Shown here: positions 5,687-64,000 of the stretch, one piece after another | How the letters are laid out: every line of letters starts with the position of its first letter | Numbering within the stretch: the first letter of the stretch is position 1 | Assembly: GCA_016214035.1 (NCBI GenBank) | Contig: JACRPF010000020.1 | Coordinates: forward strand, 68,800-132,799 | Origin: Spirochaetota bacterium | GTDB lineage: Bacteria > Spirochaetota > Brachyspiria > Brachyspirales > JACRPF01 | DNA: 64,000 nt | Direction of reading: 5' to 3' | Program-made: the position numbers and the translations under genes | Notes under the pieces: model-generated | The model's input: only the letters and a program-made list of their open reading frames with translations | Told to the model about the DNA's origin: nothing | Database searches by the model: none

Positions 5687-5688
5687 AC

Positions 5689-6276: not shown

Positions 6277-6304
6277 ATCATCATCAGAACATGGAGGGAA
6301 ACCC

Positions 6305-7408: not shown

Positions 7409-7437
7409 TTGACGCATGCCGTTGATGCGGGTATACT
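7409..7437 (+). promoter_or_regulatory. Sigma70-type promoter TTGACG-N17-TATACT
   Basis: -35 at 7409-7414, exact 17-nt spacer, -10 at 7432-7437. The track start codon at 7416 lies inside this promoter. Confidence 0.55.
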
Positions 7438-7493
7438 TACAACATAACTCTGCTGCATCACGATACTACCTCTTTGCCAAGGAAACACTATTT

Positions 7494-30579: not shown

Positions 30580-30582
30580 GCG

Positions 30583-44578: not shown

Positions 44579-44603
44579 TGGGTATTCCTCTCTCAGACAC
44601 GCG

Positions 44604-45851: not shown

Positions 45852-45880
45852 TTTTTTGCTCCATAATATAAAGGTGTATG

Positions 45881-45954
45881 CGCACCCGGCAGGGGTCGAA
45901 CCTGCAACCTCAGGCTTCGGAGGCCTGCGCTCTATCCAGTTGAGCTACGGGTGC
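45881..45954 (-). tRNA. tRNA-Arg (anticodon CCG)
   Basis: Folded by hand: acceptor GCACCCG/CGGGUGC, D stem GCUC/GAGC, anticodon stem CAGGC/GCCUG with loop CUCCGAA, T stem GCAGG/CCUGC with loop UUCGACC, discriminator G. CCA is not encoded. Confidence 0.9.
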
Positions 45955-46470: not shown

Positions 46471-46627
46471 TCGTGCCAGTCCTTGCGTAACGTCTCATCG
46501 GAATTCTGAGAACCGTACCGAACTTTTGATACGAAATGCAATATACTTCAAAAAATCGAAAAATGCAAGGACCGACAAAAATACGCTATGCCGCAGGGAT
46601 GAATGCAGTCACCTGTCCGGCACCGCG

Positions 46628-47503: not shown

Positions 47504-47566
47504 CGCACAAAGGCACGGGAATGATTATATTAAATTAGCATGAACGGCACACAAGGAGATGATGCA

Positions 47567-48313
47567 ATGACAATCGAAATAGCGAAGACAAAAGAAGCGC
47601 TGGGTGAATCAGCCGCTGAAAAAGCGATGGAACTCATCAACGGCGCAATCCGGAAAAACGGGCACGCCTATTTCATCGCGGCAACCGGCGCGTCGCAGTT
47701 CGAATTCCTCGCGGCACTCACCAAAGATCCGTCACGGGTGGATTGGAAAAAAACGACGATGTTCCATCTCGATGAGTACGTGGGCATACCCGATACGCAT
47801 CCGGCGAGTTTCCGGAAGTATATGCGGGAGCGATTCATCACCAGGGTCAACCCGGGAACGGTTCATCTTATCGAAGGCGATGCAAAAAACACAGCCGCCG
47901 AATGCGCGAGGCTCAAAACGCTCATTTCAAAATGCGTCATCGATGTGGCGTTCGTCGGCATCGGAGAGAACGGACACCTCGCGTTCAACGATCCGCCGGC
48001 GGATTTCACCACAAAAGAACCGTATCTCGTCGTCGATCTTGATGAAAAATGCCGCCGTCAGCAGATGGGTGAAGGCTGGTTCAAAACACTCGCCGATGTG
48101 CCGCCGCAGGCCGTCAGTATGTCGGTAAACGAAATCATGCGTGCGAATGCCGTCATCGCGTCGGTGCCTGATAAACGCAAGGCACAGGCGGTGGCGGACT
48201 GTCTCACCGGACCGGTCACGCCGGAACATCCGTCATCGATATTGCAGCATCATCCGAACGCATTCATTTATCTCGATGCGGCGTCGGCGTCACTGCTGCC
48301 TTCGGCAAAGTAA
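47567..48313 (+). CDS. nagB: Glucosamine-6-phosphate deaminase
   Basis: ATGASQFEFL, FHLDEYVG and GIGENGHLAFNDP. Start set at ATG 47567, 8 nt after AAGGAG. Confidence 0.9.
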   Translation: MTIEIAKTKEALGESAAEKAMELINGAIRKNGHAYFIAATGASQFEFLAALTKDPSRVDWKKTTMFHLDEYVGIPDTHPASFRKYMRERFITRVNPGTVHLIEGDAKNTAAECARLKTLISKCVIDVAFVGIGENGHLAFNDPPADFTTKEPYLVVDLDEKCRRQQMGEGWFKTLADVPPQAVSMSVNEIMRANAVIASVPDKRKAQAVADCLTGPVTPEHPSSILQHHPNAFIYLDAASASLLPSAK

Positions 48314-48320
48314 ACCGGTA

Positions 48321-49727
48321 TCATTCCAGCGGCAGTATACTGTCGATAAGTACAACGGCAAACTGGTGCTCGTGATCCGGGAATTTCGGTTTGTATTTCT
48401 GCGGGTCGTCGGCGAAGCGTCCCTTATCCCATTCCGCGGCGATGAGCTTCTTGGTCTCGCGCAGCAGCGTATTGAACGCAGCCTTCCCGGCTCCGTCTGA
48501 AGACTTATTGAGCACATGATAACCGCTCACAAGATACGCGCACTTTGCGGCGAGCAGCATTGCCTCGTAGATATCCGCATTCTTTTTCGGCTGATACCAT
48601 GACGCGATATCGAGAAGCTCCTTCGCGTTGGAGAATACCGCCGCAAGCGCTTTCACATCGTCCTTGCCGGTAAGCGGCTTGTTATCGACCGCGCCTTTCG
48701 CCGCACGATGATCGATGACGAGTGACGGATAAAGTATCAGAACTGTCGCGAGCGTGTCGTTGAGATCGCTTCCGAATACCGTTTCCGCGAACCGCGCGTG
48801 GAATTTTTTATCGTTTATCTTTCCTTTCCCCTTGTATACCTCGGCGCTGTACGCAATGCCGTAATACAATGCCGATTGAATATACCGGAACGGGCACCAT
48901 ATCGTTGTGATGAGACCGAGCGCATTGTGTTTGAACGCGAACGACGCCATCTTCTGTGTATTCTCAAGCGCGATGTCGTTCGGCAGAAAGCGGTACTCCC
49001 AGCAGGCTATCGACGGAGCCGTGATTATTTTTTTAAACCCGGCGCCCGCAAGTTTCGCGTGAACGTCGTCTTTCACCGTGCGATGATAGCGCCAATCGAT
49101 GAGTATAACATCCTTTCTGATAAGCTTTGCGATCTTTTTATCTTTTGTCGGGTGATCCGCCCACATCATCGGCGTTTTCTTCGCACCTTTCACCATGCCG
49201 ATAATCGTATTCACATACTCCGCCCATGTTGCCGATTCATCAAGCCCGCTGTTCGCTTTGCAATACTCCTTCAGATCGACTTCGTCACATCCTATATGAA
49301 GAAAGTCGCTTGAAAAGACCTTCGCCGTGGCGGCGATAAGCTTTTTCATCACCGCTAATGTCTCTTTGTTCTTCGGATCGACGGCATTGAACGTAAGCTC
49401 TTTCGTCTTCTTTCCCGCATACAGATGTTTGTATTCCTTGCGGTCGGTGAGATAGCGCGTATGCCCGAATGTCTCAAGTTCCGGGATGATATCTATCTTC
49501 TTTTTCGCCGCATAGGCGACAAGCGCTTTCATGTCCTTCGCGGTGAACGCATGCGGTTCGGCGACGGTCTCAAACCCGGGAAGCGCCACGGACATTCCGG
49601 TATCGTCGGTAAAATGCCAGAGGAGCGTGTTCATCCCCCACTCCGCCATGAAATCGATGAGGCGCCGGTAGTAATCGTGCTGCTCGATAATCCGTGTGCA
49701 GTCTATCATGATGCCGTTGATACGCAT
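48321..49727 (-). CDS. GH20-like beta-N-acetylhexosaminidase
   Basis: MRINGIMIDCTR..LLWHFTDD..ETFGHTRY..HIGCDEVD. Start moved to ATG 49727, preceded by AAGGA 8 nt upstream, because the track ATG at 49760 overlaps the -10 box. Confidence 0.85.
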   Translation of the reverse strand: MRINGIMIDCTRIIEQHDYYRRLIDFMAEWGMNTLLWHFTDDTGMSVALPGFETVAEPHAFTAKDMKALVAYAAKKKIDIIPELETFGHTRYLTDRKEYKHLYAGKKTKELTFNAVDPKNKETLAVMKKLIAATAKVFSSDFLHIGCDEVDLKEYCKANSGLDESATWAEYVNTIIGMVKGAKKTPMMWADHPTKDKKIAKLIRKDVILIDWRYHRTVKDDVHAKLAGAGFKKIITAPSIACWEYRFLPNDIALENTQKMASFAFKHNALGLITTIWCPFRYIQSALYYGIAYSAEVYKGKGKINDKKFHARFAETVFGSDLNDTLATVLILYPSLVIDHRAAKGAVDNKPLTGKDDVKALAAVFSNAKELLDIASWYQPKKNADIYEAMLLAAKCAYLVSGYHVLNKSSDGAGKAAFNTLLRETKKLIAAEWDKGRFADDPQKYKPKFPDHEHQFAVVLIDSILPLE

Positions 49728-49758
49728 GCGGTAAATCCTTGCGGTCAGAGTGTGGGGC

Positions 49759-49786
49759 ATTATATCCGTTTGGCGGGTATCGTCAA
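49759..49786 (-). promoter_or_regulatory. Sigma70-type promoter TTGACG-N16-TATAAT for the GH20 gene
   Basis: -35 is the reverse complement of 49781-49786. The perfect -10 is the reverse complement of 49759-49764. Confidence 0.6.
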
Positions 49787-49789
49787 TCG

Positions 49790-50075
49790 GCGACGCCGGA
49801 GGCGGAGGACGCGCGTTATTGCTGGGGAAAAATGTATTTCCTTGCGCCGCGCGCGACTCAGCCGTCCGTCCGTGGACGGATTCGTCGCATACGCGCCATC
49901 GTGGCGCTGTCTATTACAATTAGAATTATCTGGATGTTATATCACCATGAATTGTTGCATTTAATGCGCGGCGCGAGGAAACACATTTTTCCCTTCGCAT
50001 ATCACGCGGTGAAAAAATGAATAGTGATAGTGGTAAAAGATGTAGTTGCTATACAAACGCTCGAACGCCGTTGTG
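49790..50075 (-). repeat. Structured intergenic element, copy 2 (candidate ncRNA or structured repeat family)
   Basis: The reverse complement aligns with 11574-11862. Long helix arms at 49977-49993 and 49824-49841 plus a 9-bp GC extension. Hairpins at 49893-49907 and 49862-49879. Strand assignment is tentative. Confidence 0.8.
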
Positions 50076-50477
50076 TTTCGGGATGTGCGGGATGATGTTA
50101 TTTCGCCGCACATCATTACATAAAGTATACTACAGCTTTTGCAGCATCTGATTATACAGGATTACATACGCCGCCTGTACGAACTGCACAACATTCATTT
50201 CCTTCCCGCTTAGACAGGCTCAGCACTAGTTTTGGACTTACGAGCGGATCACTTGCCATATCTTTAGTATCATACCTGCCAATTCTTTCCGCACTTGCGC
50301 TTCACATCGGTGGCGGCTCTGACGCTCGTGCGTTTACCTTCGGCTTTCTTCAAATCCTATCTTGCAGTGCACACCCTTGCCGTTTAGCCAATGTTCTCCT
50401 TACCGAATTCATTTGAGACTTTGGTCGGTGAGCTTGCCGGACCATCACGTGTAAGTGAATGCGCCCTTGTCGGTCGC

Positions 50478-50521
50478 ACCAAATAGTAAGGACTGATGGC
50501 GACCAATATCGCCATCAGTCC
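50478..50521 (-). terminator. Likely terminator of the che-like operon
   Basis: Perfect 13-bp stem GGACUGAUGGCGA / UCGCCAUCAGUCC (50490-50521) with a 6-nt loop, followed in sense by UUACUAUUUGG. Lies about 80 nt after the cheW stop. Confidence 0.5.
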
Positions 50522-50600
50522 CAAGCACGCATCAACACGTCATATTTTTTTTTGCAGACTCACCTTCTTTTGTTCGATTATTGCGTGCATTCCTCCAATT

Positions 50601-51122
50601 TTATACCGCCATTTCGCCCGCGGTTATGTCATTCACTGAAACTTCTTTCACATATTCAAGCTCTTTTTTCGAAAACACCTTGCTCGAGTCGAGAATAATA
50701 ATAAAATCATCCCCTTTTTTTCCAATGTTGTCGATGAACTCACCGCTTACATTCATCCCCACTTTCGGCGGCACCTCTATTTGCGATGAATCGAGGCGGA
50801 TCACCTCCTTGACCGCATCCACCAAGGCACCGATAATGATGATTTCGCCATCAAATTCCGTTTCAACGATAATGATAGCCGTATCAACAGTATGACTATT
50901 GCCGTTCATCTCGAATTTCAACCGCAAATCTATTACAGGAACCACACCACCGCGAAGATTTATCACTCCGGTCATGAACGACGGCGTCTTCGGCACCTTG
51001 GTGATGCGCGTCACTTCAAGCACCTCTTTCACCTTGAGAACCTCAAACGCGAACAACTCCCTATCGAGAATGAACGTAAGATATTGTTTCGATTCAAGCG
51101 TTGCCTTAGATTTTGTTTCCAT
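50601..51122 (-). CDS. cheW: Chemotaxis coupling protein CheW
   Basis: QYLTFILDRELFAFEVLKVKEV..VINLRGGVVPVIDLR. Confidence 0.9.
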   Translation of the reverse strand: METKSKATLESKQYLTFILDRELFAFEVLKVKEVLEVTRITKVPKTPSFMTGVINLRGGVVPVIDLRLKFEMNGNSHTVDTAIIIVETEFDGEIIIIGALVDAVKEVIRLDSSQIEVPPKVGMNVSGEFIDNIGKKGDDFIIILDSSKVFSKKELEYVKEVSVNDITAGEMAV

Positions 51123-51138
51123 AGTCCATCACTCCCGC

Positions 51139-52764
51139 TTAATACTTTTTAAATTCGCCATCCTCATTGTCGCCCGCGTTTGACATCTCATATTCAAATC
51201 CTTTTTTCTTGGCTTTTGCGGCAGTCTCAGCCGTTGCGGCCATGTGCTTGGCAGTTTCATCATGGCCATTGGGAGAATGTGCCGACACGGGATGCTTCTC
51301 GTGAGCACCGGTGCCTCCGTGCATATTCAGGTGAGACACATGTGCCGTGGGATGAACCGCTTTTTTTGACTTTGCCGTATAGGTATTCTGAACCGAGATG
51401 CTGCGATCTCCCGTTTTCAGAAAGTTGATCGCCTCCTGCATTTGGACGACCTGAGCAGACAATTCTTCGGCTGTTGCCGCAAGTTCTTCGGAACTGGATG
51501 CATTCTGCTGAACCACCGTGTTGAGCTGCTGCACCGCATTATTAATCTGCTGCGCGCCGTTATTCTGCTCGTTGCTTGCCGCGCTGATCTCGGCAACCAG
51601 CTCCGCGGTTTTCTGGATATCCGGCACGAGTTTACCGAGCATCTCTCCGGCTTTGGTGGCAACTTCAACGCTTGATTTCGACAACTCGCTGATTTCAGCC
51701 GCCGCATTCTGGCTTCGTTCGGCGAGTTTCTGAACTTCGCTCGCCACAACAGCGAATCCCTTGCCGTGTTCGCCCGCACGGGCAGCTTCGATAGACGCAT
51801 TCAACGACAATAGATTCGTCTGACGCGCGATCTCCTGAATGATCGACGTTTTATCCGCTATCTGCTTCATCGCATGAACGGTCTGTTTAACCGCTTCACC
51901 GCCCTCTTTGGCATCCGTTGCGCTCTTCGATGCTATTTTCTCCGTCTGACTCGCGTTATCGGCATTCTGACGTATGGTCGCGGTCATCTCCTCAATCGAC
52001 GAGGACACCTCTTCAACACTCGCGGCCTGTTCGCTTGCTCCCTGTGAAAGCTCCTCCGAAGATGATGATACCTGCTCCGTTCCTGCGCTTACGTTATTCG
52101 ACCCCGACTCAACGACATTGACAACTTTGAGAATCGATTGCACGAGAAAAAGTCCTATAACAATTGCAAGTATAACGCCGAAAATCAGCGTCACGACCAT
52201 TGTCGTCATCGACATATTCGCAAGTTTCGTATTCTCATCCGATGTCGCTTTTGCGAGCGCCGATTTCGTATCCGTCATCGCATCAAGCCATTTCTGCTCA
52301 TTAAATGCGGCGTCTTTCATCGGCCCATCAACGATCTTCCTGGCCTCCGCATCTTTACCCGCCTTTGCAAGCGTTATAAGCTCTTCGAGATACGTCCCGT
52401 AAACATCCCTGGATTTTTTGAACTCGGAAAACTCCTGCCGTCCCTTTTCCGTCAGCAGTGTTTTTTCATAGCTGTCTGAATTTTCTTTGATTTTGTCACG
52501 AAGTTTCGCGATGACATCCGCTATTTTCTGAATATCCGTTGCGTTCTCCGCATCAACCATATCTCTCACATTAATGCGAACACGTTGAAACGATACAGCG
52601 ATATCCATAAGTTGTCCGATTGGAACGGTTACTTTTTCATACAACCGCTTATCAGATTCTTCTATTGACTTTATTTGAGTCATGCCGAAAACACCTATGA
52701 CAGCAGCTACGGCTGCAACACCTAAAAAACCCATGATTAGTTTTGCGCGAATTCCTAACTTCAT
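51139..52764 (-). CDS. Methyl-accepting chemotaxis protein (4-helix-bundle sensor, HAMP, MA domain, His-rich tail)
   Basis: Start set at ATG 52764, preceded by AAGGAG 7 nt upstream. Signalling hairpin [37 protein letters not shown]. Confidence 0.9.
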
Positions 52765-52832
52765 TTCAACACTCCTTATGTTTTTTCCGAATATAGTCAA
52801 TCGCCTCAACGGCTACGAAAACGATTGTGATT

Positions 52833-54944
52833 TTATTGTTGTGCAACCTCCTCGCGCGCAGATTCATTCATCACTATTTCATTCTTAATTATCGTGTTCG
52901 CGTCAAGAATGAGCGCCACCGTGCCGTCGCCGAGAATAGTGGCGCCCGCGACCTCTTCGATACCGCGGAACGTGCTCCCGAGCGATTTGATCACCGTCTG
53001 ATGCTGCCCGAGCACGTCGTCCACCACAAGCCCCACGCGCCGGTCACCCAACTTCGTCACCACCATCCGTTCGATGACGGGTACGTTCCCGCTAATGTTG
53101 AAATTCTTTCTGAGCCGCACATAGGGGATTATCTCGCCGCGTATATTCACCACGTCGCTGCCGTGCCCGGTGTTCACGATGTCCTCTGTGAGATCGACAC
53201 ATTCGTCGACGTTTGAGAGATTGAGCACGAAGTAATCACCGCCGATGCGCGCGAGCAGTCCCTCAACGATGGCAAGTGTAAGCGGGATCTTCAATGTGAA
53301 CGTGGTCCCCTGTCCCGCCGCCGACTGTATCTCCACGGTCCCGCGAAGTTTTTCAACGTTATTTTTCACCACATCCATTCCCACACCGCGACCCGACACG
53401 CTTGTCGCCTTATCAACGGTTGAGAAACCGGGCAGGAATATCATCTGTTCTATTTCATGCGCCGGAAGCTCGGCATTTTCTTTCACGAGTCCGCGCTCTA
53501 TCGCCTTTTTCAGTATGCGCGAACGATTGAGTCCGCCGCCGTCGTCTGAAACGGTGATGAGCACATGCGCCCCCGCATGCGAGGCGGAAAGTGTAATTAT
53601 ACCCTTCGCGTTTTTCCCGTTCGCCTGTCGTTCTTCGGGGGATTCGATGCCGTGGTCGGCGGCGTTCCGTATGATGTGCAACAGCGGGTCTTTCAACGCC
53701 TCGATAATGTTTTTATCAAGTTCCGTCTCGGCGCCATGCGTCATGAGGTCGATGTCCTTGCCGAGGTCATTTGAAAGGTCGCGCACCAGACGGGAAAAAC
53801 CTTTGAACATCTCGTCAACGGGTATCATGCGAAGCGCCATCGACGTATCGCGAAGCTCGTCGGTGAGTCGCGTGAGCATCTCGGTGAGCATGCGTCCGTC
53901 GCCGAGACGTTTCGCCCCCGAAAGCTGATTGAACCGCGCGGTGAGTGTGACGAGTTCGCCCACCAGATTCACAAGCTTGTCGAGTTTTTCGCTTTTCACG
54001 CGTATGCTCGATTTCGCAACGTCGTCACGCCGCTTCGAGCGTTCGGAGCGCACCACGTTCTGTTCGGCCAGCGCCGCAGCCACCTGCGCCTCGCTCACAT
54101 AGCCTTTCTCCACCGCTATCTCGCCGATCATCTTCCGCGAGCGGATGATGTCGGCCAGGTCTTCCTCACTGATATCACCGCGCTCAACGAGTATATCGCC
54201 GATGCGTTTGTACTCCTCTGTTGCCGATACCGCGCTTCCCGTATCGATGACCTCGATTGAAACATCGCTTACGTCCTCGACAAATATGAAAACATCGCGT
54301 ATTGCATTTTTGTCTTTATCGGAGCATAGCGTGATGGCCCACGAGCTGTAACACAGCTCAGCATCAATCTCATCGAGCGGGGCCACGTGCTGCAAAGCTA
54401 TGATTACGCAATCGCCCATGCGTTTGATCTCGCTGAAGAGCGGCTCAATCTTCACCCCGCGAAGGAAGATATCCCTGTGCGGCTTGAAGATAATGCGATA
54501 CGTATTTCTGAATCTTGCCTCCGAATCTCGTTCACCGGTGACTTCCGATGTTTTTTTTGATTCCGGAAAAATAAGCCCTGTTGTTTCACGCATCCGGCAT
54601 TTCAGTGCAGCCGTTCCGCTGAGCGGGACCGACTGTTCATCGCCGAGTATTGCTTTGAGATGATCGGCTGCGGCAAGCGTAAGATCTATTATCTCTTTTG
54701 TCACGGCAATACTGCCTTTCCGGATATAATCGAAAAGCGTCTCGAACTCATGCGCGAATTCTGATGCGCGGCTGAAACCGAACATGGCACCCGACCCTTT
54801 AATCGTATGCATGCCGCGAAAAATGGTATTGATAATCTCCGTATCGGACGGAGTCCGTTCGAGCTCGATGAGCGACTGCTCGATACGCTCGATGACTTCA
54901 AACGCCTCGTCGCGAAAGGCCTCGCTGAACCTGCTTACATCCAT
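52833..54944 (-). CDS. cheA: Chemotaxis histidine kinase CheA
   Basis: Hpt FRGMHTIKGSGAMFGF, HATPase LLHIIRNAADHGIE..DDGGGL..GRGVGMDVV and a C-terminal CheW-like domain. Start set at ATG 54944 (MDVSRFSEAF). Confidence 0.9.
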   Translation of the reverse strand: MDVSRFSEAFRDEAFEVIERIEQSLIELERTPSDTEIINTIFRGMHTIKGSGAMFGFSRASEFAHEFETLFDYIRKGSIAVTKEIIDLTLAAADHLKAILGDEQSVPLSGTAALKCRMRETTGLIFPESKKTSEVTGERDSEARFRNTYRIIFKPHRDIFLRGVKIEPLFSEIKRMGDCVIIALQHVAPLDEIDAELCYSSWAITLCSDKDKNAIRDVFIFVEDVSDVSIEVIDTGSAVSATEEYKRIGDILVERGDISEEDLADIIRSRKMIGEIAVEKGYVSEAQVAAALAEQNVVRSERSKRRDDVAKSSIRVKSEKLDKLVNLVGELVTLTARFNQLSGAKRLGDGRMLTEMLTRLTDELRDTSMALRMIPVDEMFKGFSRLVRDLSNDLGKDIDLMTHGAETELDKNIIEALKDPLLHIIRNAADHGIESPEERQANGKNAKGIITLSASHAGAHVLITVSDDGGGLNRSRILKKAIERGLVKENAELPAHEIEQMIFLPGFSTVDKATSVSGRGVGMDVVKNNVEKLRGTVEIQSAAGQGTTFTLKIPLTLAIVEGLLARIGGDYFVLNLSNVDECVDLTEDIVNTGHGSDVVNIRGEIIPYVRLRKNFNISGNVPVIERMVVTKLGDRRVGLVVDDVLGQHQTVIKSLGSTFRGIEEVAGATILGDGTVALILDANTIIKNEIVMNESAREEVAQQ

Positions 54945-54976
54945 ATGCCGGCTTCCTTTTTTTCCGTATGACCGAA

Positions 54977-55330
54977 TTACACACTGAATATATCGTGCAT
55001 GATGCAGTTGCACCCGCCGTTGACACTGCAGCGCCTATGGGCGAAAAAACCCGAGTGTTTTGCGGCATCGACCACCGCGGGTGATGCACGATTACTGCAG
55101 AACGAGATGTTGCGCTTTCGTTTCAAAAGAAGCATATGCGCTGCGCTTATTATCTGCATGAAGGAAATATCCGCCACGTCAATATCGTTCAGATCAAGAA
55201 CGATATCCCGATCTTCGTTCATCGCCGATATAAGTCTCTGTTGTATTTCCTTCGCATGATCGATGGTTGCATCGCCCTTTATGCGGGCGATGAGCACGTC
55301 GTCCTGCCGTTCTGTTTCAATGGCAAACAC
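54977..55330 (-). CDS. STAS-domain protein with a Cys-rich C-terminal tail
   Basis: GTG start preceded by AAGGAGG. STAS-like DIVLDLNDIDVADISFMQIISAAH. Tail is FCSNR..RRCSVNGGCNCIMH. Confidence 0.7.
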   Translation of the reverse strand: MFAIETERQDDVLIARIKGDATIDHAKEIQQRLISAMNEDRDIVLDLNDIDVADISFMQIISAAHMLLLKRKRNISFCSNRASPAVVDAAKHSGFFAHRRCSVNGGCNCIMHDIFSV

Positions 55331-55517
55331 ATACTCCTCCTTTTTTACTAGTTATTCTCAAATCGTACATTTACACTAATTACTGTCGCTCTCGCGGTGC
55401 ATCCTGCACCGCTTGCGCTAGCGTAGCGCGGGTGCTCACAACACTGTGCGCATCCATGCGCGGGTCCATTCGTGAATACTAATGTTCTTTTCTTATTCGT
55501 CATATAATAGTCCCGCG

Positions 55518-55883
55518 CTATCCTACAACTTTCTTCACCGTCTCTTTCAGCTTATCCGGAGTGAATGGTTTCACTATCCATGCTGTGGCGCCTGCGGCCT
55601 TGCCCTCGTCCTGTTTTCCCTGCTCCGACTCCGTGGTCAGTACGATGATGGGCAGAAACTTGCTTCTATCGTCCTTGCGGATATTCTTGATAAGCTCGAT
55701 TCCGTTCATCCCCGGCATGTTTATGTCGGTTATGACAAGTTTCATCGATGAACCCGAAAGCTTCGTAAGCGCCGACGTACCCGAATCAGCTTCAACAACT
55801 TCATACCCGTCCTCTGCCAGGGTGAAATGCACCATCTGCCGCATCGACGGAGAATCATCCACGATCAGTACCTGTACACCCAA
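55518..55883 (-). CDS. cheY: CheY-like single-domain response regulator
   Basis: VLIVDDSPSMR..VITDINMPGMNG..PIIVLTTE..KPF. Confidence 0.9.
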   Translation of the reverse strand: MGVQVLIVDDSPSMRQMVHFTLAEDGYEVVEADSGTSALTKLSGSSMKLVITDINMPGMNGIELIKNIRKDDRSKFLPIIVLTTESEQGKQDEGKAAGATAWIVKPFTPDKLKETVKKVVG

Positions 55884-55887
55884 AGTG

Positions 55888-57162
55888 CTACCCTCCTATT
55901 GATGCTGCGTCACGCGCAGCGATTGTTTTTTGCAGAATATCTTTTTCTTCTTTCATCGTGTAGAATCCCGAAAGATAGTGTACAACATCTCCTGACGTAC
56001 CGTCCCCGTCTCCGCCCATGGCATCAGCGATGACCTTCAGTTCGGCGCCGAAATCGTTGAGGGGACTTATGACGTGTTCAACGCGCTGACGGATGATATC
56101 GTGCGCCTGCATGGATACCACGATGGCGTTCGTATCCACGGCCAGTGCCTCGGTGTCCTTCTTCAGTGTTTCAAGCTCGTGCTTCACGTCCTCAATGGTA
56201 TTGTTGATTGTCGCCAGCGTCGAGTCGAACGCCATTTCCGCGTTGGCGGTATGCTTGTTGATTGCGACCGCACCCTCTTCAATCTCGGAGTGCATGCTTC
56301 GCGCGGCGCTCATCACTTCTTCAAGAATGACGCTAATCTCCTTTGCGGCGTTCTCGCTCAGGCGCGAGAGTTTCCTCACCTCATGCGCCACCACCGCAAA
56401 ACCCCTGCCGCTTTCACCGGCCCGCGCGGCTTCGATGGCCGCGTTGATGGCAAGCACATTCGTCCGGTCCGCTATGCCACCGATGCTGTTGATGATCTCG
56501 CCGATGCTCTTCGCCTGCTCGATGATGCGTCCGATGCCGTCGAGGTTTTTCTTCGTTATACCCGTGGTGGCCCGGAAATTCTCCATAAGACCGCGCATGA
56601 CGTCCTTGGTGACGTCGAGTACGGTACCGCCCGCGGTAAGTCCGTTACCCGAAAGCGTGCCGAAAACGGCCGCCGTTTTTTCCGACTGGTGCCGTGCCTT
56701 GGCGTTGATATCGAGAAAACTTTTTGAAAGATCAACGGCCGTTGTCTCAATCTGTTCGCGGACAGCGGTGAGCTGATTTACGAGCACACCGATGCCTTTG
56801 GTGCGGTCGTTGAGCATGCCCGCCACCGGACTTATAATAGCCGCTAATTCTTCCAGTTTACAATCGCGCTGCTTTATTTCATTGCGCAGTACTCCGATCA
56901 CGGCTTCAGTTTCCCGGGCATGTACCGCAACGGCACGTGCCACCCGTGCATCTGCGGCAGCCGTAAGCTTTTTCCGTTCATCCTCAAATGCCGCATACTG
57001 CGCTTCAAGCTGTGCGCGTTTTCCTGCAACATCCAGAATCGGGATGAGCGTCATCACCACGGCCGCGAGCGTAAGAAAAAGCCGCAGCGGCAACAACGGA
57101 ATGAATGCCGAGAACAAGGCAAGCATCACTATAATCGCGTATCGAACATACCATTGCCTCAT
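55888..57162 (-). CDS. MCP-signalling-domain protein with two N-terminal TM helices
   Basis: [37 protein letters not shown]. No recognisable periplasmic sensor. Confidence 0.85.
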
Positions 57163-57170
57163 CTGCTTAC

Positions 57171-57356
57171 CTATTCTTTATCCGTATTCTGATCAGCGTC
57201 ATTATTTATTTCCGGATTTTCTAAAACGCGCGGGTTATACTTGATGAGCGTTATGAAACAGGCGCTGCACATAAATCGGTGTGTATCGGTATATTGTTCA
57301 ACATTATACAGCCGCATGGTTAGTTTTTTGCAACAGTCACAACGTTTTATTTCCAT
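57171..57356 (-). CDS. Small zinc-ribbon-like protein (C-x2-C-x20-C-x2-C), paralog B
   Basis: 61 aa: [29 protein letters not shown]. Paralogous to the adjacent ORF. GGTAGG lies 8 nt upstream of the ATG. Confidence 0.5.
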
Positions 57357-57595
57357 ATTTCATGCCTACCATAATGCAACTTGATTTCATTCCCATATTC
57401 TGCAGTGCCGTTTTTCTTTTTTGTTCCCTCCCGCTTAGCCTGAACAAGATCACTTACGATCTGAAGTACACAACTGCCGCACACCAAATGAAAGGCATCG
57501 CTATATTCACCCATGTCAAATAGATTCGATACCCGTTTCTTGCAGCGTTCACACACATCATCTCCCACTGTATCTCCATGCACCGATAACGACAC
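57347..57595 (-). CDS. Small zinc-ribbon-like protein (C-x2-C-x20-C-x2-C), paralog A
   Basis: VCERCKKRVSNLFDMGEYSDAFHLVCGSC. There is no ATG before the first Cys, so the start is one of several GTGs (57595 or downstream). It overlaps paralog B by 10 nt. Confidence 0.5.
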   Translation of the reverse strand: MSLSVHGDTVGDDVCERCKKRVSNLFDMGEYSDAFHLVCGSCVLQIVSDLVQAKREGTKKKNGTAEYGNEIKLHYGRHEIWK

Positions 57596-57663
57596 ATCGT
57601 ATCACAAACGATATCATGTGATCGGTATAAAGATTTTATGGCATTATTCCCATACACTGTTCA

Positions 57664-57680
57664 ATACAATATCTGTGCCA
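57664..57680 (-). promoter_or_regulatory. Sigma54-type promoter TGGCAC-N5-TTGTA
   Basis: Sense TGGCACagataTTGTAtt. The -24 box is perfect. The -12 box has T instead of the conserved C. It lies 70-85 nt upstream of the first zinc-ribbon ORF and about 100 nt downstream of the sigma54 activator gene. Confidence 0.45.
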
Positions 57681-57783
57681 CACGCCAAACGGCTGCATTG
57701 ACAAAAAAACGATGTTGCGGCAATCATACGTGTAAAAAAATGGCCGCTATTCGAACGGGAATGTAACAAAACGTACATGGCGG

Positions 57784-59148
57784 CTATTCAAGATTATATT
57801 TTTTCAACTTACGGTTCAGCGTGGGACGCGACATTTGCAGCAATTCCGCCGCCTGCGATTTGTTGCCGGATGTTTTTTTGAGTGCCGCTGCGATTGTACG
57901 CCGCTCGATAATGTCAAGATTGAATATATTCTGCTCAGATGCGGCTGTATCCATGGCCTTTTTATCATGCACAAACGGAAGATGCTGCGGGAGAAGCATG
58001 TTTCCCGAACAAAGGATCACCGCCCGTTCTATGATGTTTTTCAGTTCACGCACATTACCGGGAAAATGATACGAAGACAGCAACGCATGGAATTCGGGAG
58101 ATGCACTGTCCACTTTTTTACACTCTTTTTGAGTATAATGCCGTATATAGTGATTGATAAGCTCAGGGATGTCTTCTTTCCGCTCTCTGAGCGGCGGCAG
58201 AGCAATCTCGATTGTATTGAGTCTGTACAAAAGATCGGACCGGAACGTATTGTCAATGAGAGCGCTGATATTCTTATTGGTCGCCGAAATAACACGCACA
58301 TCAATCTGTATGTCTTTTGATGAACCGATGCGGTGTATGATGCGATCCTCGAGTACGCGAAGCATTTTAGACTGCGCTTGGAACGGCATATCGCCGATTT
58401 CATCGAGAAAAATGGTACCGCTGTCCGCGCGTTCGAAATAACCGGCTTTATCCTCGTGCGCGTTTGTAAATGCCCCTCTCGAATGGCCGAAAAGTTCGCT
58501 TTCCACGAGCGATTCGGGGATAGCCGCGCAGTTTACCGGCAGGAATGTCCTGTCCTTTCGCGCCCCCGCATAGTGTATCAGCCGCGCAAACAGCTCCTTG
58601 CCGGTACCGCTTTCACCGGTAATCATCACCGACGCGTTTGGAGATGCAGCGGCTTGCAGCGCAAGATCAATAGCCTCACGCATGAGTATGCTGTTTCCTG
58701 AAATATCTCCGATTTTCTTGCGAACTTCTTCCGTAAATAATGCATGGCGGTATTCCGCCGCTTTAAGTTCACGCATAAGATCGATGTAGTGTTTCGTGCG
58801 CTCAATCGATGCTTGTATCAAAAAACCATCAAGCGGTTTGGTGATATAATCAAACGCGCCGTAGCGAAGCGTTTGAATTACCGTCTCGCTTGCGTTCCGC
58901 GCGGTTATCATAATCGCTTCAATATCGGGATGATCCGTCTTCATCAATTTCAGGAATTCAATTCCGCTCATCTCCGGGAGATTGATATCAATGAGCGCGA
59001 TATCGATTGCATGCGCCGCAATGATTGCAAACGCCTTTGTAGGGCATTCCGCCGCAAAAATGTCGTATGGAAAACTTGATAAAAAATCATTCAGGCTGTT
59101 ACGCACGATAAGATCGTCATCGATGATAAGTAGCTGCAGCCGCTTCAT
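57784..59148 (-). CDS. Sigma54-dependent response regulator (NtrC family enhancer-binding protein)
   Basis: REC, AAA+ domain (GESGTGKE, ESELFGHSRGAFTNA) and a C-terminal Fis-type HTH (NKSQAAELLQMSRPTLNRKLKKY). Confidence 0.95.
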   Translation of the reverse strand: MKRLQLLIIDDDLIVRNSLNDFLSSFPYDIFAAECPTKAFAIIAAHAIDIALIDINLPEMSGIEFLKLMKTDHPDIEAIMITARNASETVIQTLRYGAFDYITKPLDGFLIQASIERTKHYIDLMRELKAAEYRHALFTEEVRKKIGDISGNSILMREAIDLALQAAASPNASVMITGESGTGKELFARLIHYAGARKDRTFLPVNCAAIPESLVESELFGHSRGAFTNAHEDKAGYFERADSGTIFLDEIGDMPFQAQSKMLRVLEDRIIHRIGSSKDIQIDVRVISATNKNISALIDNTFRSDLLYRLNTIEIALPPLRERKEDIPELINHYIRHYTQKECKKVDSASPEFHALLSSYHFPGNVRELKNIIERAVILCSGNMLLPQHLPFVHDKKAMDTAASEQNIFNLDIIERRTIAAALKKTSGNKSQAAELLQMSRPTLNRKLKKYNLE

Positions 59149-59161
59149 AAAAACGTCATTA

Positions 59162-61948
59162 CTATTTTTGCAGAGTAAGGTGAATTACAAATTCGCTATA
59201 TGCGCCGTATTCACTTTCGACATAAATCTCGCCCCCCATCGATGAAACAATTCCGTAGACAATTGACAGTCCAAGCCCCGTCCCCTCCTTCGTGGGCTTT
59301 GTGCTGAAATACGGGTCGAATATTTTCTTGCGGAAATCGTCCGGAATACCCATGCCGTTGTCGCGAACTTTCACCAACACCTTGCCGTCATCCGTAATGT
59401 GACTCAGTATACGGATAGTTTTTCTATACTCCGCGGAGGCCGTACGCGCTTTTTCCTCGACCGCATAACGGGCATTCGACAGCAGATTAAGCACCACCTG
59501 CTCGAATCGAAATAGATTACCGAGCACCATGCACGGCAGGTCTGAATAGGATGCCGCGAGGTCAATATTGTGATTGCGGTATTGCACCTCAACAAGATCG
59601 AGCGCATAACTGATGCTCTCGTTCAAATCGAACGGTGCCACCGTATCGTTGCTCTGCTCACGCGAGAATGTACGGATATGGTCGACAAGATTGTTTATCC
59701 GCTTCACGTATTCTTTAACCTTTGCGGCACGGTCATCAACAACCGGGTTGTCAATTTTCCCGCGGCTTAACAACTGGAGCGAATCCGCCATAAGATGTAT
59801 ACCGGAAAGCGGTTGTGCTATTTCGTGCGCAATACCGGCAGCCAGCTGCCCCAGCGATGACAGTTTTTCAGCCTCGACGACTTTCTCACGTAATATGCGG
59901 TCATGTTCCTCTGCGTCTTTCCGCTCGGTCACGTCGGCCATGTTCAGAAATATCGACTCCTTGCCTTCATAGATAATCGGCCGCGCAAACGCATCCACCC
60001 ATTTTATCCGGCGGTCTTTCGTCACGATGCGATAGGTTACGTTAATGGTCTTCCGTATCCCCGCGCGGACCTGTCCCGCAAGTTCCTTGATATCCGGCAG
60101 ATCATCGGGATGCGTGATCATGGCATGGTCCAGCAGCGGCCAGCCCAGCATCTCGGCAATCGTATATCCGAAAATATCGGCCATCGCCTGATTCTCATAA
60201 AGAATATGCCCTTGATGGATTATCATGATACCCATTATCGATTGTTCGGACAGCACCCTGAATTTCTGCTCACTTTCACTGAGCGCCTGATTGAGCATCT
60301 TCAGCTTTGCGGTGCGGGCGGTAATCTTTCGCTCAAGACTGCAGTTCAATCGTTTTATCTGTTCATCTGCCTGAACACGTTCGGTTATTTCCCGGGCATA
60401 TACGACGATATAATATACCTCGTCGTCATCATCGAAAACGGGATACAGATGATTCTCATACCATGAACGTCCCTGTTGATCGATAAACACCAGGGGTTCA
60501 TGCTTGTCTATCACCTGTTGCATATATCCCTTCAACTGCGTCACATTGCCGATCGGCAGCTCATCAATAGATACCCCGATCAGTTCGTGCGCTTCTTTCG
60601 CGAATCTTTTTGCCGTCGCTTCATTGCATACGTGAATCACCCCCGTCGTATTCAGCAGAATGATAATCTCGACCGAAGCATTGAAAATCGCCTGCAGCGC
60701 TTTTTCATTATTTCGCAATTCAAGTTCCGCCTTTTTCTGCGGGGTGATATCGCGTATAATCGAACCGATTTGAAACCCCGTCTCGGTTTTTATCGGAAAC
60801 ATTGACTGCTGAATATAGTGCACCTCTTCGGCTTGTTGTATCCGTGATTCAATTACCTTATTGAAAAACACGGCATCCCCCGATGCCAACGCATGACGTA
60901 TTTTATCCCGGAGCTCCACGAGTTGTTCCGGGTTACGGGATTGCTCCGGTATCATCTGATAATGAATCTCCCATACCGGTTTTCCTATGGCCTTATCCTT
61001 CGCTATGCCGCTGATCCGTTCCAACGCATTATTCCAATCAATAATGATCCCCGATTCATCAATAAGGCTCACACCATCGGAATTCTGCTGCGTTAAGGCG
61101 CGGTATTTTTGCTCACTATACCGCAGCAATGACTCCGATTTTTTCTGATTGCTGATGTTCCTTACCGAACTTACTATTCCGAAAAGGGTATTATCGACGA
61201 ACACCGGCCTCGCCGTTTGAGATATCCATCGACATTCCCCCGCGGCGTCATACATCCTGTATTCGCAATCGACAATAGCTTCCCCGCAAAAAGCCTTTCG
61301 ATTCGCGTCTTTCACTCTTTGAAGATCGTCCTGATGTATATAATTCCAGACTGAATTCCGCTGAATTGTTTCCGCAGAATGTCCAAGAACGTTCATGCAC
61401 TGATCGCTCATGAATGCAATCGAGCCATCTGGATTCTGCATCACAATCAAATCCGGCGAATTCTTTACCAAAATACTGAAATATTGATCACATTCCTTGA
61501 GCGATCTTTCCATAGCCAGCAGGGCTTCGTACTTACGCGTACGGCCGCCATTCGTCCGCACCGGCTGTCGGAAATACCCGTCAGCGCATGGTTCCAACCG
61601 GCCGTTACCTAGCTGTTGTACATACGTACGCAATGAAGCTTTCGTAACTACGCCAACAAATCGATTCTGTTCCGCTACCGGCAGGACTGATGTATTATAT
61701 TTTTCAATGAGTGGAAGAATGGTGTCGATATGATCGAGCCCGGATACACACGGCACTGATGCTATGCAGTCACCCACCAGGCGATGTGCAGATGACACCA
61801 CGCTCTCCGGGGTAATAATACCGTGAAAAACGCCGTCGTCCATTACAACAAGAAACGTCTTATCGATGAGAAGTTCTTCGATTTGATTTACGCATACATA
61901 TGGCGAAACGACATTATAATCGTCACATACCAGCGTTGTGAGGTTCAT
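59162..61948 (-). CDS. CBS-pair / multi-PAS sensor histidine kinase
   Basis: N-terminal CBS-like pair (VMDDGVFHGIIT..VLPVAEQNRFVGVVT), about 4 PAS repeats, H-box AGIAHEIAQPLSG and HATPase RDNGMGIP..GTGLGLSIV. Confidence 0.9.
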   Translation of the reverse strand: MNLTTLVCDDYNVVSPYVCVNQIEELLIDKTFLVVMDDGVFHGIITPESVVSSAHRLVGDCIASVPCVSGLDHIDTILPLIEKYNTSVLPVAEQNRFVGVVTKASLRTYVQQLGNGRLEPCADGYFRQPVRTNGGRTRKYEALLAMERSLKECDQYFSILVKNSPDLIVMQNPDGSIAFMSDQCMNVLGHSAETIQRNSVWNYIHQDDLQRVKDANRKAFCGEAIVDCEYRMYDAAGECRWISQTARPVFVDNTLFGIVSSVRNISNQKKSESLLRYSEQKYRALTQQNSDGVSLIDESGIIIDWNNALERISGIAKDKAIGKPVWEIHYQMIPEQSRNPEQLVELRDKIRHALASGDAVFFNKVIESRIQQAEEVHYIQQSMFPIKTETGFQIGSIIRDITPQKKAELELRNNEKALQAIFNASVEIIILLNTTGVIHVCNEATAKRFAKEAHELIGVSIDELPIGNVTQLKGYMQQVIDKHEPLVFIDQQGRSWYENHLYPVFDDDDEVYYIVVYAREITERVQADEQIKRLNCSLERKITARTAKLKMLNQALSESEQKFRVLSEQSIMGIMIIHQGHILYENQAMADIFGYTIAEMLGWPLLDHAMITHPDDLPDIKELAGQVRAGIRKTINVTYRIVTKDRRIKWVDAFARPIIYEGKESIFLNMADVTERKDAEEHDRILREKVVEAEKLSSLGQLAAGIAHEIAQPLSGIHLMADSLQLLSRGKIDNPVVDDRAAKVKEYVKRINNLVDHIRTFSREQSNDTVAPFDLNESISYALDLVEVQYRNHNIDLAASYSDLPCMVLGNLFRFEQVVLNLLSNARYAVEEKARTASAEYRKTIRILSHITDDGKVLVKVRDNGMGIPDDFRKKIFDPYFSTKPTKEGTGLGLSIVYGIVSSMGGEIYVESEYGAYSEFVIHLTLQK

Positions 61949-62480
61949 GTATCAATTCCGAATACTACACCCGCACGCAACACGTTTATATCAAGATCAA
62001 TATCCACGATTTTTCCGCTTCAATTAACTGAAAACACAAGTTACCGCAGCAGATCGATGTTTCATCTTCAGGCGGCATTTCCGAGGACATACTGACACAA
62101 CATGGGGCGGGAGTAACGATATTTCCTCAGTCAATGGAACAAAGAATTGCATTTGTGAATTCACTACTGCTCCCTATTGCGTTACAGACTGAAAATACCC
62201 GGATATGCGCTCATGCAACTAAGGAAAAACCATTTAAATGAAATCCTGCGGCTCAACGGAGAAGCATCTTTATTTCACTTGATTTAATTATACTTGAGAA
62301 AAATAAAATATGCAATAAATGTATAGTGGTTTGAGCGTTGCTTTATGCATTCAAAAAGCCCGTGTACTGCTTTTTGCTTCTCGGGAATATATCCGCTGCC
62401 ATTACTACGCGGGCTTGTTTCGCAGCAGCTGCGTCTAAAGCAACTTCCTGTACCGCGCGCTGTCGCAAATCATTACGTAT

Positions 62481-62509
62481 TGTATATTGTCACATATCCA
62501 CCGCGTCAA
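62481..62509 (-). promoter_or_regulatory. Candidate sigma70-type promoter TTGACG-N17-TATACA
   Basis: Same -35 hexamer as the promoters at 7409 and 49786. It lies about 520 nt upstream of the kinase start at 61948. Confidence 0.3.
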
Positions 62510-62566
62510 GCCGCATGTGCTGTCGGTGACATGCAAAAACGAAAATCTTCGACGGAAATATCATTG

Positions 62567-62785
62567 TCAATGTCCGGCGAATAAATTCCTCATCTCGGGA
62601 AGCGATTGACCCCATATCCGCCCCTCGGGAGGGGAGCGTTCGAGGAGCGCGTGCGCGGTGCGTCCTGATTCTCGATAGATGCGCACAAATTCTCTCCAGT
62701 CGATGGTGCCTTTTCCCGGCAGGAAATGCAGGCCTTTTCGTCCGTCGTTGTCATGCAGATGCATTGCCGCCGCACGCGCACTCAT
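62567..62785 (-). pseudogene. Remnant of a sugar-phosphate isomerase/epimerase (xylose-isomerase-like TIM barrel), C-terminal ~70 aa only
   Basis: HLHDNDGRKGLHFLPGKGTIDWREF matches the usual C-terminal part of this ~270-aa family. The N-terminal ~200 aa are missing, and the upstream gene stops 15 nt before it. Confidence 0.5.
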
Positions 62786-62800
62786 CGCCTGTGCGGCATT

Positions 62801-64000
62801 TCAAGGCTGCACCATAATCTTCATCACGACCATCCCAGAACCAGTCGCGATATGACACAGATACACCCCGGGGCCGACCCTTTTTCCATTCGTCGTCGAC
62901 AACGCCCAGACAATCCTGCCGTCTTCCGCGGAAAGCACAGCGATGCGTTTACCAGATACGGTATACAGCGTTGCGGTCGTTGCCTCCGGAATAGTGTCGA
63001 TAATAACAGTGCCTCCCGTCCTGCAGGGATTGTTCCGTATGATCGTACTCCGAAGGTTCGTGACGGGTTCAGTTATACTGATATTCGTCAGCATGACACT
63101 CGCTGAATTGGTCGTCACACGCGCTATGATGCGTACATCATAGCGCACAGACTGATCGGGCATTTCCCGATAGCGCCACTCGTTTGTAAAACGCCCGCTT
63201 GTCAGCAGCGTAAGCGATCCCGCGATGTCAGCGGGCGGCATTACGTTCCATGCGCCGCTGTTTGCGACTGCATACTCCAACGTTATGCTCGCCGCATTCG
63301 TACAGTTCTTTATCAAATCGTATGAGATTATGGCCGAGCGCGGCGCATTTCGCGCCTCAACAGCGGCATTGACCAAGCTGAGAAAAACGTTCGGCTGTTT
63401 TGAGGAGGCGGTACACAAGGGCGATTCTCCACCGCTATTGGTCGCGGACACTTTATACCAATAGAGTATGTTTGCGTCAAGCGAAATATCCGTATATGCG
63501 GTGACATTAGCCCCGACATCCGCAAGATAGGCATATGAAACGCCATTTATGCTGCGATAAATTCTAAACGCACTCTCGGTAGAGGAATTATCCGCCCAGG
63601 AGAGACGCAGCGCCATGGCGCCCAAATCGGTAAGTGACAGCCCTGAAGGGGCGGCGGGCGGCGGCGGGGTGAAGCCGATGTTCGTAACCGTGATCCAGAG
63701 AACGTTCGTCCGGGAGTTTCCGCTGCTCTCCGTGGCGATGACAAGAATCTTATACGTACCGCCAGCGAGCGATGACGGAAGCGAGTATGTATACCCATAT
63801 AGATTGCCTCCGGCATTGGTCATCGCGCATGTACCACCGGAGACCGCGGCAAGGTCTAGGGTCATGCCGGTGACCATTGTGCCGAACCCGAGTGCATTCG
63901 CGTTGAACGATACTGAACACCCGTTCGTGCCGATGCCGGGTGTCATGACCGCATTCGTGAGGATAATACGCGCGGGATTGGAATGCGCAAAAAGCCATTC
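62801..64000 (-). CDS. Secreted Fn3-domain protein with a T9SS-type C-terminal sorting domain (5' end beyond the right edge)
   Basis: The frame stays open from 63946 to 64000 (..EWLFAHSNPARIILTNAVMTPG..), so the CDS is partial. Fn3 PSGLSLTDLGAMALRLSWADNS..YRIYRS..YWYKVSATN. Tail NPCRTGGTVIIDT..ATLYTVSGKRIAVL..GPGVYLCHIATGSGMVVMKIMV resembles Por_Secre_tail / FlgD-Ig. Confidence 0.65.
   Translation of the reverse strand, partial: EWLFAHSNPARIILTNAVMTPGIGTNGCSVSFNANALGFGTMVTGMTLDLAAVSGGTCAMTNAGGNLYGYTYSLPSSLAGGTYKILVIATESSGNSRTNVLWITVTNIGFTPPPPAAPSGLSLTDLGAMALRLSWADNSSTESAFRIYRSINGVSYAYLADVGANVTAYTDISLDANILYWYKVSATNSGGESPLCTASSKQPNVFLSLVNAAVEARNAPRSAIISYDLIKNCTNAASITLEYAVANSGAWNVMPPADIAGSLTLLTSGRFTNEWRYREMPDQSVRYDVRIIARVTTNSASVMLTNISITEPVTNLRSTIIRNNPCRTGGTVIIDTIPEATTATLYTVSGKRIAVLSAEDGRIVWALSTTNGKRVGPGVYLCHIATGSGMVVMKIMVQP

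Follow-up and report, generated by a model that had tools for sequence, protein, structure and literature searches.

The gene cluster considered here lies on the minus strand of a 64 kb stretch of DNA (contig JACRPF010000020.1; hereafter the window) from an uncultured Spirochaetota bacterium, and encodes a chemosensory pathway built around the kinase CheA. The best explanation, to which we give a probability of about 0.6, is that this is an accessory pathway of the F8 type, encoded by one sigma54-dependent operon in the order ZnR1-ZnR2-MCP2-CheY-STAS-CheA-MCP-CheW and closed by a terminator, where ZnR1 and ZnR2 are zinc-ribbon mini-proteins, MCP2 is a receptor-like protein and the second MCP is a four-helix-bundle (4HB) receptor of the 34H length class. 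The cluster is a genuine, intact and probably sigma54-gated member of the 34H/F8-type family. Its distinctive features are lineage-specific zinc-ribbon leader genes, an exchangeable kinase/activator module and a CheA with an MshEN-type module, whereas the STAS protein and the missing CheB and CheR are ordinary, and nothing here overturns current understanding. All twelve features in the gene list of an initial annotation, made from the sequence alone, were recovered at the coordinates given in Table 1 (domains were assigned using Pfam). That annotation did not know the combination as a described system. It is not an undescribed one, and its best place is in a flagellar-type class that already has a name, F8, whose systems have 34H receptors, are widespread and are obscure in function.

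The class assignment starts from the 4HB receptor, in which 243 residues separate the landmarks of the signalling domain. The same span was found in the receptors of related loci from Rhizobium (L036), Rhizobiales (L081), Devosia (L018), Pseudomonadaceae (L042), Desulfobulbaceae (L003) and Nitrospirota (L004). It is 14 residues shorter than in Escherichia coli Tar, a 36H receptor, and because the missing residues form two symmetric heptads (7+7), the window receptor is 34H. Receptors of this length have been assigned to the F8 systems che2 of Rhizobium leguminosarum, che3 of Bradyrhizobium diazoefficiens and cluster II of Pseudomonas syringae (PMC8429497, PMC11253619). The window receptor, with a likely start at ATG 52764, has no HAMP domain, and in its tail (51139–51400) a His-rich linker connects the signalling domain to a C-terminal EFKKY pentapeptide. 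His-rich linkers also occur in the receptors of L004, L019, L086 and L092 (clusters from Spirochaetota, Nitrospirota and Bacteroidota), which suggests that this is a conserved, possibly metal-binding, property. Two orthologous receptors have diverged in other ways. The receptor of L092 (7076–9829) is a 917-aa fusion of Pro_CA (beta-carbonic anhydrase), 4HB_MCP and MCPsignal domains, and that of L086 (12156–13994) includes symmetric 14+14-residue insertions of repeated VE[EQ]VSSS heptads that take it from 34H to a 38H-like length.

MCP2 has neither a sensor domain nor a HAMP domain and, with one weak match to the methylation consensus, no credible methylation site. As its indels and a C-terminal FYTM..E motif are common to the genes preceding cheY in Pseudomonadaceae loci, MCP2 belongs to a conserved module, and the order MCP2-like gene, cheY, STAS, cheA, mcp, cheW recurs across phyla. 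Judged by their sequences, the 34H receptor and MCP2 both include the domains needed for assembly with CheW and CheA. In the MCP2 homologues of L092 (2849–3673) and L095 (3280–3873), the central hairpin-tip signalling region is lost and the transmembrane (TM) hairpin and the C-terminal region are kept; hence, the conserved function of MCP2 may not require the tip that binds CheA and CheW. A QxxD-x3-Q motif in MCP2 was considered as a CheZ-like phosphatase site and rejected, since it aligns with the ordinary MDRVTQQ of Tar and gave no match to the Pfam CheZ model.

An alignment-based scan of genomes listed 80 matching loci with CheAs 34–48 % identical to the window CheA, and the window proteins together with E. 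coli CheR and CheB were mapped onto them. A genome scan using the single window CheA as query gave no match, and a metagenome scan returned one locus; a further locus (L091) is the same sequence as the window, from a Logan assembly. Translated from its ATG start, the window CheA is 100 % identical to a deposited 703-aa protein of a Spirochaetota metagenome-assembled genome (MAG) (P0001). The closest CheAs (56–85 % identity) all come from Spirochaetota MAGs or assemblies, and the next tier (~50 % identity) comes from Geotalea, Nitrospirota, Magnetoovum and Syntrophaceae. Neighbour joining placed the spirochaete CheAs as one clade within a group from Desulfobacterota, Nitrospirota, Acidobacteriota and Bacteroidota. 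Among the relatives, L086 (CheA 61 % identical) has the longest counterpart of the operon, in the order REC-ZnR-ZnR-MCP2-CheY-STAS-CheA-MCP-(Cache fragment)-MCP-CheW-MCP-CheR-CheD-CheB, and L092 has a CheA 63 % identical to that of the window. The marks of the class for alternative cellular functions (ACF) are absent from the window operon, as CheA has no REC domain and the sole regulator assigned by Pfam is the 121-aa CheY.

The STAS protein had been presented as an oddity of this cluster, and this does not stand up, as such proteins are standard in this CheA family and have been described in the CheS and F7 stage-1 systems. Using an iterated hidden Markov model (HMM), a small STAS open reading frame (ORF) was found directly upstream of cheA in 59 of the 80 listed loci, in the arrangements STAS-cheY-cheA (26 loci), cheY-STAS-cheA (25) and STAS-cheA (8), and 62 of 65 candidate neighbour ORFs match Pfam STAS_2. 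The family consensus is D-[LT]-[AS]-G-[LVI]-Q-L-L, with the Asp (D54) and the Gln (Q59) kept in 63/65. The residue after the conserved Asp aligns with the phospho-serine of the MDS motif in the solved structures of TM1442, RsbV and SpoIIAA; it is Ile in the window protein (D54-I55) and Ser in only six of the 65 family members. As the phospho-serine is absent, the protein resembles a CheA accessory and not a substrate of partner switching. The published model for such an accessory is CheS of Sinorhizobium meliloti, a STAS protein that binds CheA, which then binds CheY1 about 100-fold more strongly, promotes CheY dephosphorylation and speeds signal termination (PMC4214558, PMC12654446, PMC8429497). 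Counterparts are also present in F7 stage-1 clusters, as genes for an 'anti-sigma factor antagonist' (PMC4214558, PMC7184735). No RsbW-type kinase or PP2C phosphatase is encoded in the operon, and the HATPase_c_2 proteins of the window lie 4 kb and 21 kb off in other transcription units. The nearer one is an RsbW-like stand-alone protein of 171 aa (45955–46470, minus strand) 4 kb downstream of the che operon; it adjoins a PocR/AraC regulator (46628–47503, minus strand) and has no adjacent STAS or PP2C partner. The other, an RsbW-type serine kinase with a receiver (REC + HATPase_c_2; 28777–29574, minus strand), lies directly beside flgA-/flgG-like genes (next to 29578–31377) and could link a phosphorelay to partner switching at the flagellar locus.

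The initial annotation had also stated that the 64 kb window holds no CheB, CheR, CheZ, CheC or CheD. This was confirmed, as no domain of these proteins, or of CheX or CheV, was detected in the scanned window ORFs of at least 150 aa, and tblastn over the window with E. coli CheB, CheR and CheZ found no match. Hence, the statement that the system lacks adaptation enzymes is right for the window, though probably not for the system. CheR-CheD-CheB is present in the relative L086, L092 has CheR only, and of the 59 related loci whose downstream sequence extends for 8 kb or more, 48 have both CheR and CheB and eight have neither. In the window receptor the methylation consensus is matched five times, at sites that its orthologues also show, and the protein ends in EDGEFKKY, which is identical to the end of the orthologue in L086 and, judged by motif, is a tether for CheR. 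Receptor endings of the form xFxx[FY] were also seen in L004, L019, L032, L042, L092 and L094, and the F8 receptor of P. syringae is that organism's only receptor with a CheR-tethering pentapeptide (PMC11253619). Because methylation sites and a C-terminal tether have been retained, we infer that CheR and CheB act in trans, and the adaptation enzymes are probably encoded elsewhere in the genome. Their absence from the cluster is an ordinary, or only a local, feature.

The first interpretation of the cluster, taken further, would be a pathway that has no adaptation and no part in flagellar steering, is made only in response to a two-component and sigma54 signal and acts via CheY, STAS or cyclic di-GMP (c-di-GMP) on gene expression, biofilm or development. 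The missing adaptation genes, in the window and in the eight loci just mentioned, are consistent with such a pathway, as are the minor or indirect roles in chemotaxis of the F8 systems of R. leguminosarum and P. syringae (PMC8429497, PMC11253619), the c-di-GMP-type module of CheA considered below and the two RsbW-type kinases elsewhere in the window. We nevertheless consider it unlikely, since the receptor retains its five methylation sites and shares its tether-like end with an orthologue encoded in a CheR/CheD/CheB cluster, the STAS protein lacks the phospho-serine, the output protein is an ordinary CheY of one domain (40 % identity to its E. coli counterpart), and one of the sigma54 operons led by a zinc-ribbon gene adjoins a flagellin gene.

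Control by a two-component system and sigma54 had been proposed as well. The sequence TGGCACagataTTGTA is the sole match to TGGYAY-N5-TTGYW on either strand of the window (0.29 expected); its -24 element is perfect (TGGCAC) but its -12 element reads TTGT, with GT and not GC. The first cistron is closely preceded by a full-consensus -24/-12 sequence in L084 (TGGCATattgaTTGCA), L086/87 (TGGTACacggaTTGCA) and L088/89 (TGGTACgtggtTTGCA), and such sequences also occupy the equivalent position in L092 (TGGCATggtagTTGCA), L094 (TGGCACggtacTTGCA) and L095. When the plus strand of the loci (1.54 Mb) was searched for TGGYAY-N5-TTGCW, five of the nine matches lay exactly upstream of spirochaete operons. 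As the promoter is common to six relatives, sigma54 dependence is a property of the clade, and the window operon is very likely sigma54-dependent. Other che operons are known, or have been predicted, to be regulated by sigma54, including che and flagellar operons under global regulators (PMC2577667).

The candidate activator is encoded directly upstream. Three contexts, namely the window, L084 and L094, have genes for a PAS-kinase and an NtrC-type activator directly ahead of the promoter; in each, the activator gene shares the strand of the promoter and ends 100–220 bp upstream of it. The window activator matches Sigma54_activat at E=1e-63, and its sigma54-contact loop is GAFTNA as against GAFTGA, with the Phe and the Thr kept and one residue different. 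Between the activator gene and the promoter, two palindromes that read GAATAGC[C/G]GCCAT are candidate activator-binding sites, though the second overlaps a weak hairpin and T-run at 57758–57744. The adjacent pair is thus likely to be the activator of the operon. An alternative is that a distant activator, such as a regulator of the flagellar hierarchy, drives the promoter and that the adjacent pair controls other genes. This would account for the operons of L086, L088, L092 and L095, which have the promoter and no adjacent activator, and there are precedents in other bacteria for global regulators that control che and flagellar operons through sigma54 (PMC2577667). However, the position and strand of the activator gene in the window, L084 and L094, and the palindromic repeats in the window, make it improbable.

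The pairs found at this position differ, the window activator being 35 % identical to that of L084 and 45 % identical to that of L094. The window kinase shares 26–29 % identity with the L084 kinase (26–36 % over L084 and L094), and the sensory input therefore appears to have been exchanged between genomes. Differing PAS-kinase/activator pairs in front of one conserved operon illustrate how the expression of a whole sensory pathway can be rewired to new inputs.

These differences could also be signs of decay. Another CheA, with 60 % identity to the window protein, appears to sit on the window's contig, which implies a paralogous cluster in the same genome, and a short contig that carries this CheA has cheY-cheA-mcp and no STAS gene. 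The cluster might then be a duplicate, an F8-type copy that has lost CheR, CheD and CheB and is drifting, with an unrelated kinase/activator pair upstream. Besides the paralogue, this is consistent with the variable content of such clusters (MCP2 without a hairpin tip in L092 and L095, CheR alone in L092), with the non-orthologous kinase/activator pairs and with the imperfect -12 element of the window. It is difficult to reconcile with the state of the operon, in which all eight ORFs are intact and 69–91 % identical to those of L084 with the invariant residues preserved, the cistrons overlap or are closely spaced, and the terminator has been retained. Likewise, a kinase/activator pair immediately before a sigma54/ZnR operon in three contexts is hardly chance. 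We therefore hold decay to be a poor explanation, with little likelihood.

The zinc-ribbon genes had been noted as unknown components, and they proved to be real and co-conserved with the operon. The longest ORF for ZnR1 is 82 aa, and the likely start at GTG 57568, which is preceded by GGAGA, gives a protein of 73 aa. ZnR2 overlaps the end of ZnR1 by 10 nt, and the two proteins are weak paralogues of each other. Their homologues share four invariant Cys residues and a conserved Tyr, and in all related contexts (L084, L086–L090, L092/93, L094 and L095) one or two such genes come first after the promoter. A profile search of 1.84 billion representative proteins gave 19 ZnR matches at E ≤0.001, about 15 of them credible small proteins, and a word-indexed search of 5.8 billion proteins gave four. 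All of the contexts examined are in Spirochaetota MAGs or unclassified metagenome contigs, and a search of the 80 distant loci gave no ZnR ORF. Matches to Pfam and NCBIfam models did not reach threshold (DUF7685 and DUF7573 matched below their cut-offs). The AlphaFold2 model of ZnR2 has a pLDDT of ~90 for residues 1–40 and consists of zinc-knuckle hairpins and a helix; a fold search with it returned generic zinc-finger matches only, none of them at E ≤0.001. Because these genes keep a constant position as leader cistrons of operons that depend on an activator, their products may act in feedback on that activator or together with the receptors, and we consider it most likely that the proteins either exert such feedback or help in receptor or array assembly. 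The family is tied to sigma54-driven receptor or che operons in all contexts examined and marks an unrecognised accessory component. A further cassette of this kind was seen in L094 (4698–12357), which includes a PAS kinase, a sigma54 activator, a perfect TGGCAC-N5-TTGCA promoter, a ZnR gene, a CZB-domain MCP, a 269-aa protein and flagellin; it is the second cassette on a contig that apparently also holds the che cluster of P0006.

The initial annotation overlooked a module in CheA. Residues 247–295 match NCBIfam NF053729 ('cyclic di-GMP-binding domain, MshE-related') with 45 bits against a cut-off of 38, and a profile built from 16 CheAs matches the c-di-GMP-binding domains, of solved structure, in PilF of Thermus thermophilus (6f8l, E=1e-19; also 8pfa) and MshE of Vibrio cholerae (5htl, E=2e-8). 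Ten positions of the segment are invariant across 20 CheAs. The module is present in the CheAs of the spirochaete clade and of relatives from Desulfobacterota, Nitrospirota and Geobacter, partial in the beta/gamma-proteobacterial group, and absent from those of the alphaproteobacterial F8-type group, Bacteroidota and E. coli that were compared. It probably lets c-di-GMP modulate the kinase, and if c-di-GMP is bound, this CheA would form a direct link from a second messenger to a chemosensory kinase. MshEN-CheA fusions were noted in the domain survey of Wang et al. 2016 (PMC5013675), the only mention found in the literature searched, in which no experimental study was found.

Taken to its furthest extent, this material would describe a spirochaete cassette of PAS-kinase, sigma54 activator, promoter, ZnR and receptor or che genes in which the ZnR proteins are new functional components (they might, for instance, inhibit the activator as a feedback or serve in array assembly) and CheA senses c-di-GMP directly, the whole being a conditional decision circuit gated by a second messenger and not a steering system. 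We regard this as a tentative and rather doubtful extension. In the F8-type reading that we prefer, the cytoplasmic CBS/PAS kinase would phosphorylate the adjacent NtrC-type activator, which would open the sigma54 promoter, so that the whole pathway would be produced only when a particular condition prevails inside the cell. The assembled CheA would phosphorylate the single-domain CheY and, with CheS of S. meliloti as the model, the STAS protein may be a CheA-bound accessory that tunes the traffic between CheA and CheY and not a phosphorylated antagonist. From its homology to MshE and PilF, the MshEN-type module is predicted to let c-di-GMP modulate CheA, and CheR and CheB from genes elsewhere, possibly those with the paralogous cluster on the same contig, would provide adaptation by methylation in trans.

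Several observations weigh against this reading. The spirochaete CheAs lie apart in the tree from E. coli F7 and from both proteobacterial (alpha and beta/gamma) F8-type groups, and the cluster, though probably F8, has been filed there by receptor length and gene order and not by the MiST CheA class models. No CheR or CheB of this genome was located, a search with the CheB of L086 giving 73–80 % identity among the matches listed. As a -12 GC is near-universal, the GT in the window promoter may make it weak. Between the window and L084 the kinase/activator pairs share 26–35 % identity, as against 69–91 % for the che genes, and are not orthologues, and four relatives have the promoter and no adjacent activator, so that adjacency alone does not prove a cognate pair. 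The MshEN insert departs from its models in having an Asp at the hydrophobic position 11 of repeat 1, a Met for Arg/Lys at position 1 of repeat 2 and a repeat spacer of one residue rather than five, and both repeats fit the relaxed published motif only with two departures allowed (any residue at position 11 and Met at position 1). Given the short spacer and the two deviant positions, c-di-GMP binding by CheA is put forward as a prediction. Lastly, the S. meliloti system works with a pair of CheYs, one a sink and one the output, and there is one CheY here.

Table 1. Features of the chemosensory cluster and its upstream regulatory genes (window coordinates)
Feature	Position	Strand	Evidence
Sensor histidine kinase, cytoplasmic; CBS, four PAS, HisKA, HATPase_c	59162–61948	-	Pfam
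NtrC-type sigma54 activator; REC, AAA+ Sigma54_activat, HTH_8	57784–59148	-	Pfam, NCBIfam
Two 13-bp imperfect palindromes	57789–57777 and 57752–57740	-	Sequence reading
Sigma54-type -24/-12 promoter, TGGCAC-N5-TTGTA, TGGCACagataTTGTA	57680–57665	-	Pattern search
Zinc-ribbon mini-protein 1 (ZnR1)	57347–57595	-	CxxC...Y[ST]D...CxxC kept in homologues
Zinc-ribbon mini-protein 2 (ZnR2), 61 aa	57171–57356	-	CxxC...CxxC; homologues; AlphaFold2 model
MCP2, receptor-like, N-terminal two-TM hairpin, MCPsignal only	55888–57162	-	Pfam
CheY, single-domain, 121 aa	55518–55883	-	Pfam
Intergenic spacer cheY-STAS, 187 nt	55331–55517	-	Fold z-score -2.8
STAS protein, stand-alone, CheS-like, 117 aa	54977–55330	-	Pfam STAS, STAS_2
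CheA, 703 aa; Hpt, MshEN-like insert, dimerisation, HATPase_c, CheW-like	52833–54944	-	Pfam
MshEN-type tandem motif within CheA, residues 247–295	54060–54206	-	NCBIfam NF053729
Transmembrane 4HB receptor, 4HB_MCP_1 + MCPsignal, 34H class	51139–52809	-	Pfam, length class
CheW	50601–51122	-	Pfam
Intrinsic terminator, 15-bp-stem hairpin then T-rich tail, 3' of cheW	50522–50489	-	Hairpin scan

The spacer between cheY and the STAS gene is GC-rich and forms hairpins, and its z-score, calculated against shuffled sequence, indicates moderate predicted structure. An Rfam scan of 49500–64000 was empty, the spacer sequence is unique within the window and, unlike a terminator, it has no T-tract. The gap is 23–85 nt in relatives as against 187 nt here, and the spacer is not conserved. 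Elsewhere in the window, glycan-related genes lie at 5537–11234, 14764–18345 and 42023–49760 and encode proteins containing a carbohydrate-binding module (CBM), GH42-like and GH20 proteins, a glucosamine-6-phosphate isomerase and a protein resembling glycogen phosphorylase; none was found to be linked in function with the che operon. A response regulator of the REC + HD_5 type (HD_5 and HD domains; 1255–2328, minus strand) adjoins a hybrid PAS kinase (2521–4851, minus strand).

Compared with known systems, the cluster is closest to the F8 clusters (R. leguminosarum che2, B. diazoefficiens che3 and P. syringae pv. tomato cluster II), with which it shares a 34H receptor ending in a C-terminal aromatic pentapeptide, the core order cheY-(STAS)-cheA-mcp-cheW and an accessory position beside other che genes; related spirochaete clusters also carry the cheR-cheD-cheB of F8 clusters. 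It differs in having no cheR, cheD or cheB in cis, in its Spirochaetota host, in the zinc-ribbon leader genes, the upstream kinase/sigma54 activator pair and the MshEN-type insert in CheA, and in the placing of its CheA, which the tree puts in another group than the F8-type CheAs of proteobacteria. As in the S. meliloti CheS and F7 stage-1 systems, a single-domain STAS protein is encoded beside cheY and cheA, and a single HMM-defined family includes it and the STAS genes of Rhizobium, Devosia, Pseudomonadaceae and other loci. The order is STAS-cheY-cheA in rhizobia and F7 stage-1 clusters but cheY-STAS-cheA here, and binding to CheA, known for CheS, is predicted for the window protein.

The module in CheA resembles the MshEN domains of V. 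cholerae MshE and T. thermophilus PilF in its two tandem 24-residue repeats of the form RLGxxLLxxGxIxxxxLxxxLxxQ and in the significant profile matches. It differs from them in being embedded in CheA between the Hpt and dimerisation domains, in its one-residue spacer and at the two deviant key positions. Finally, a -24/-12 promoter before a che operon is shared with the sigma54-dependent che and flagellar operons represented by cheOp3 of Rhodobacter sphaeroides and the predicted che promoters of Geobacter, from which the window is set apart by the dedicated PAS-kinase/activator pair upstream and by a zinc-ribbon mini-gene that is always the first after the promoter.

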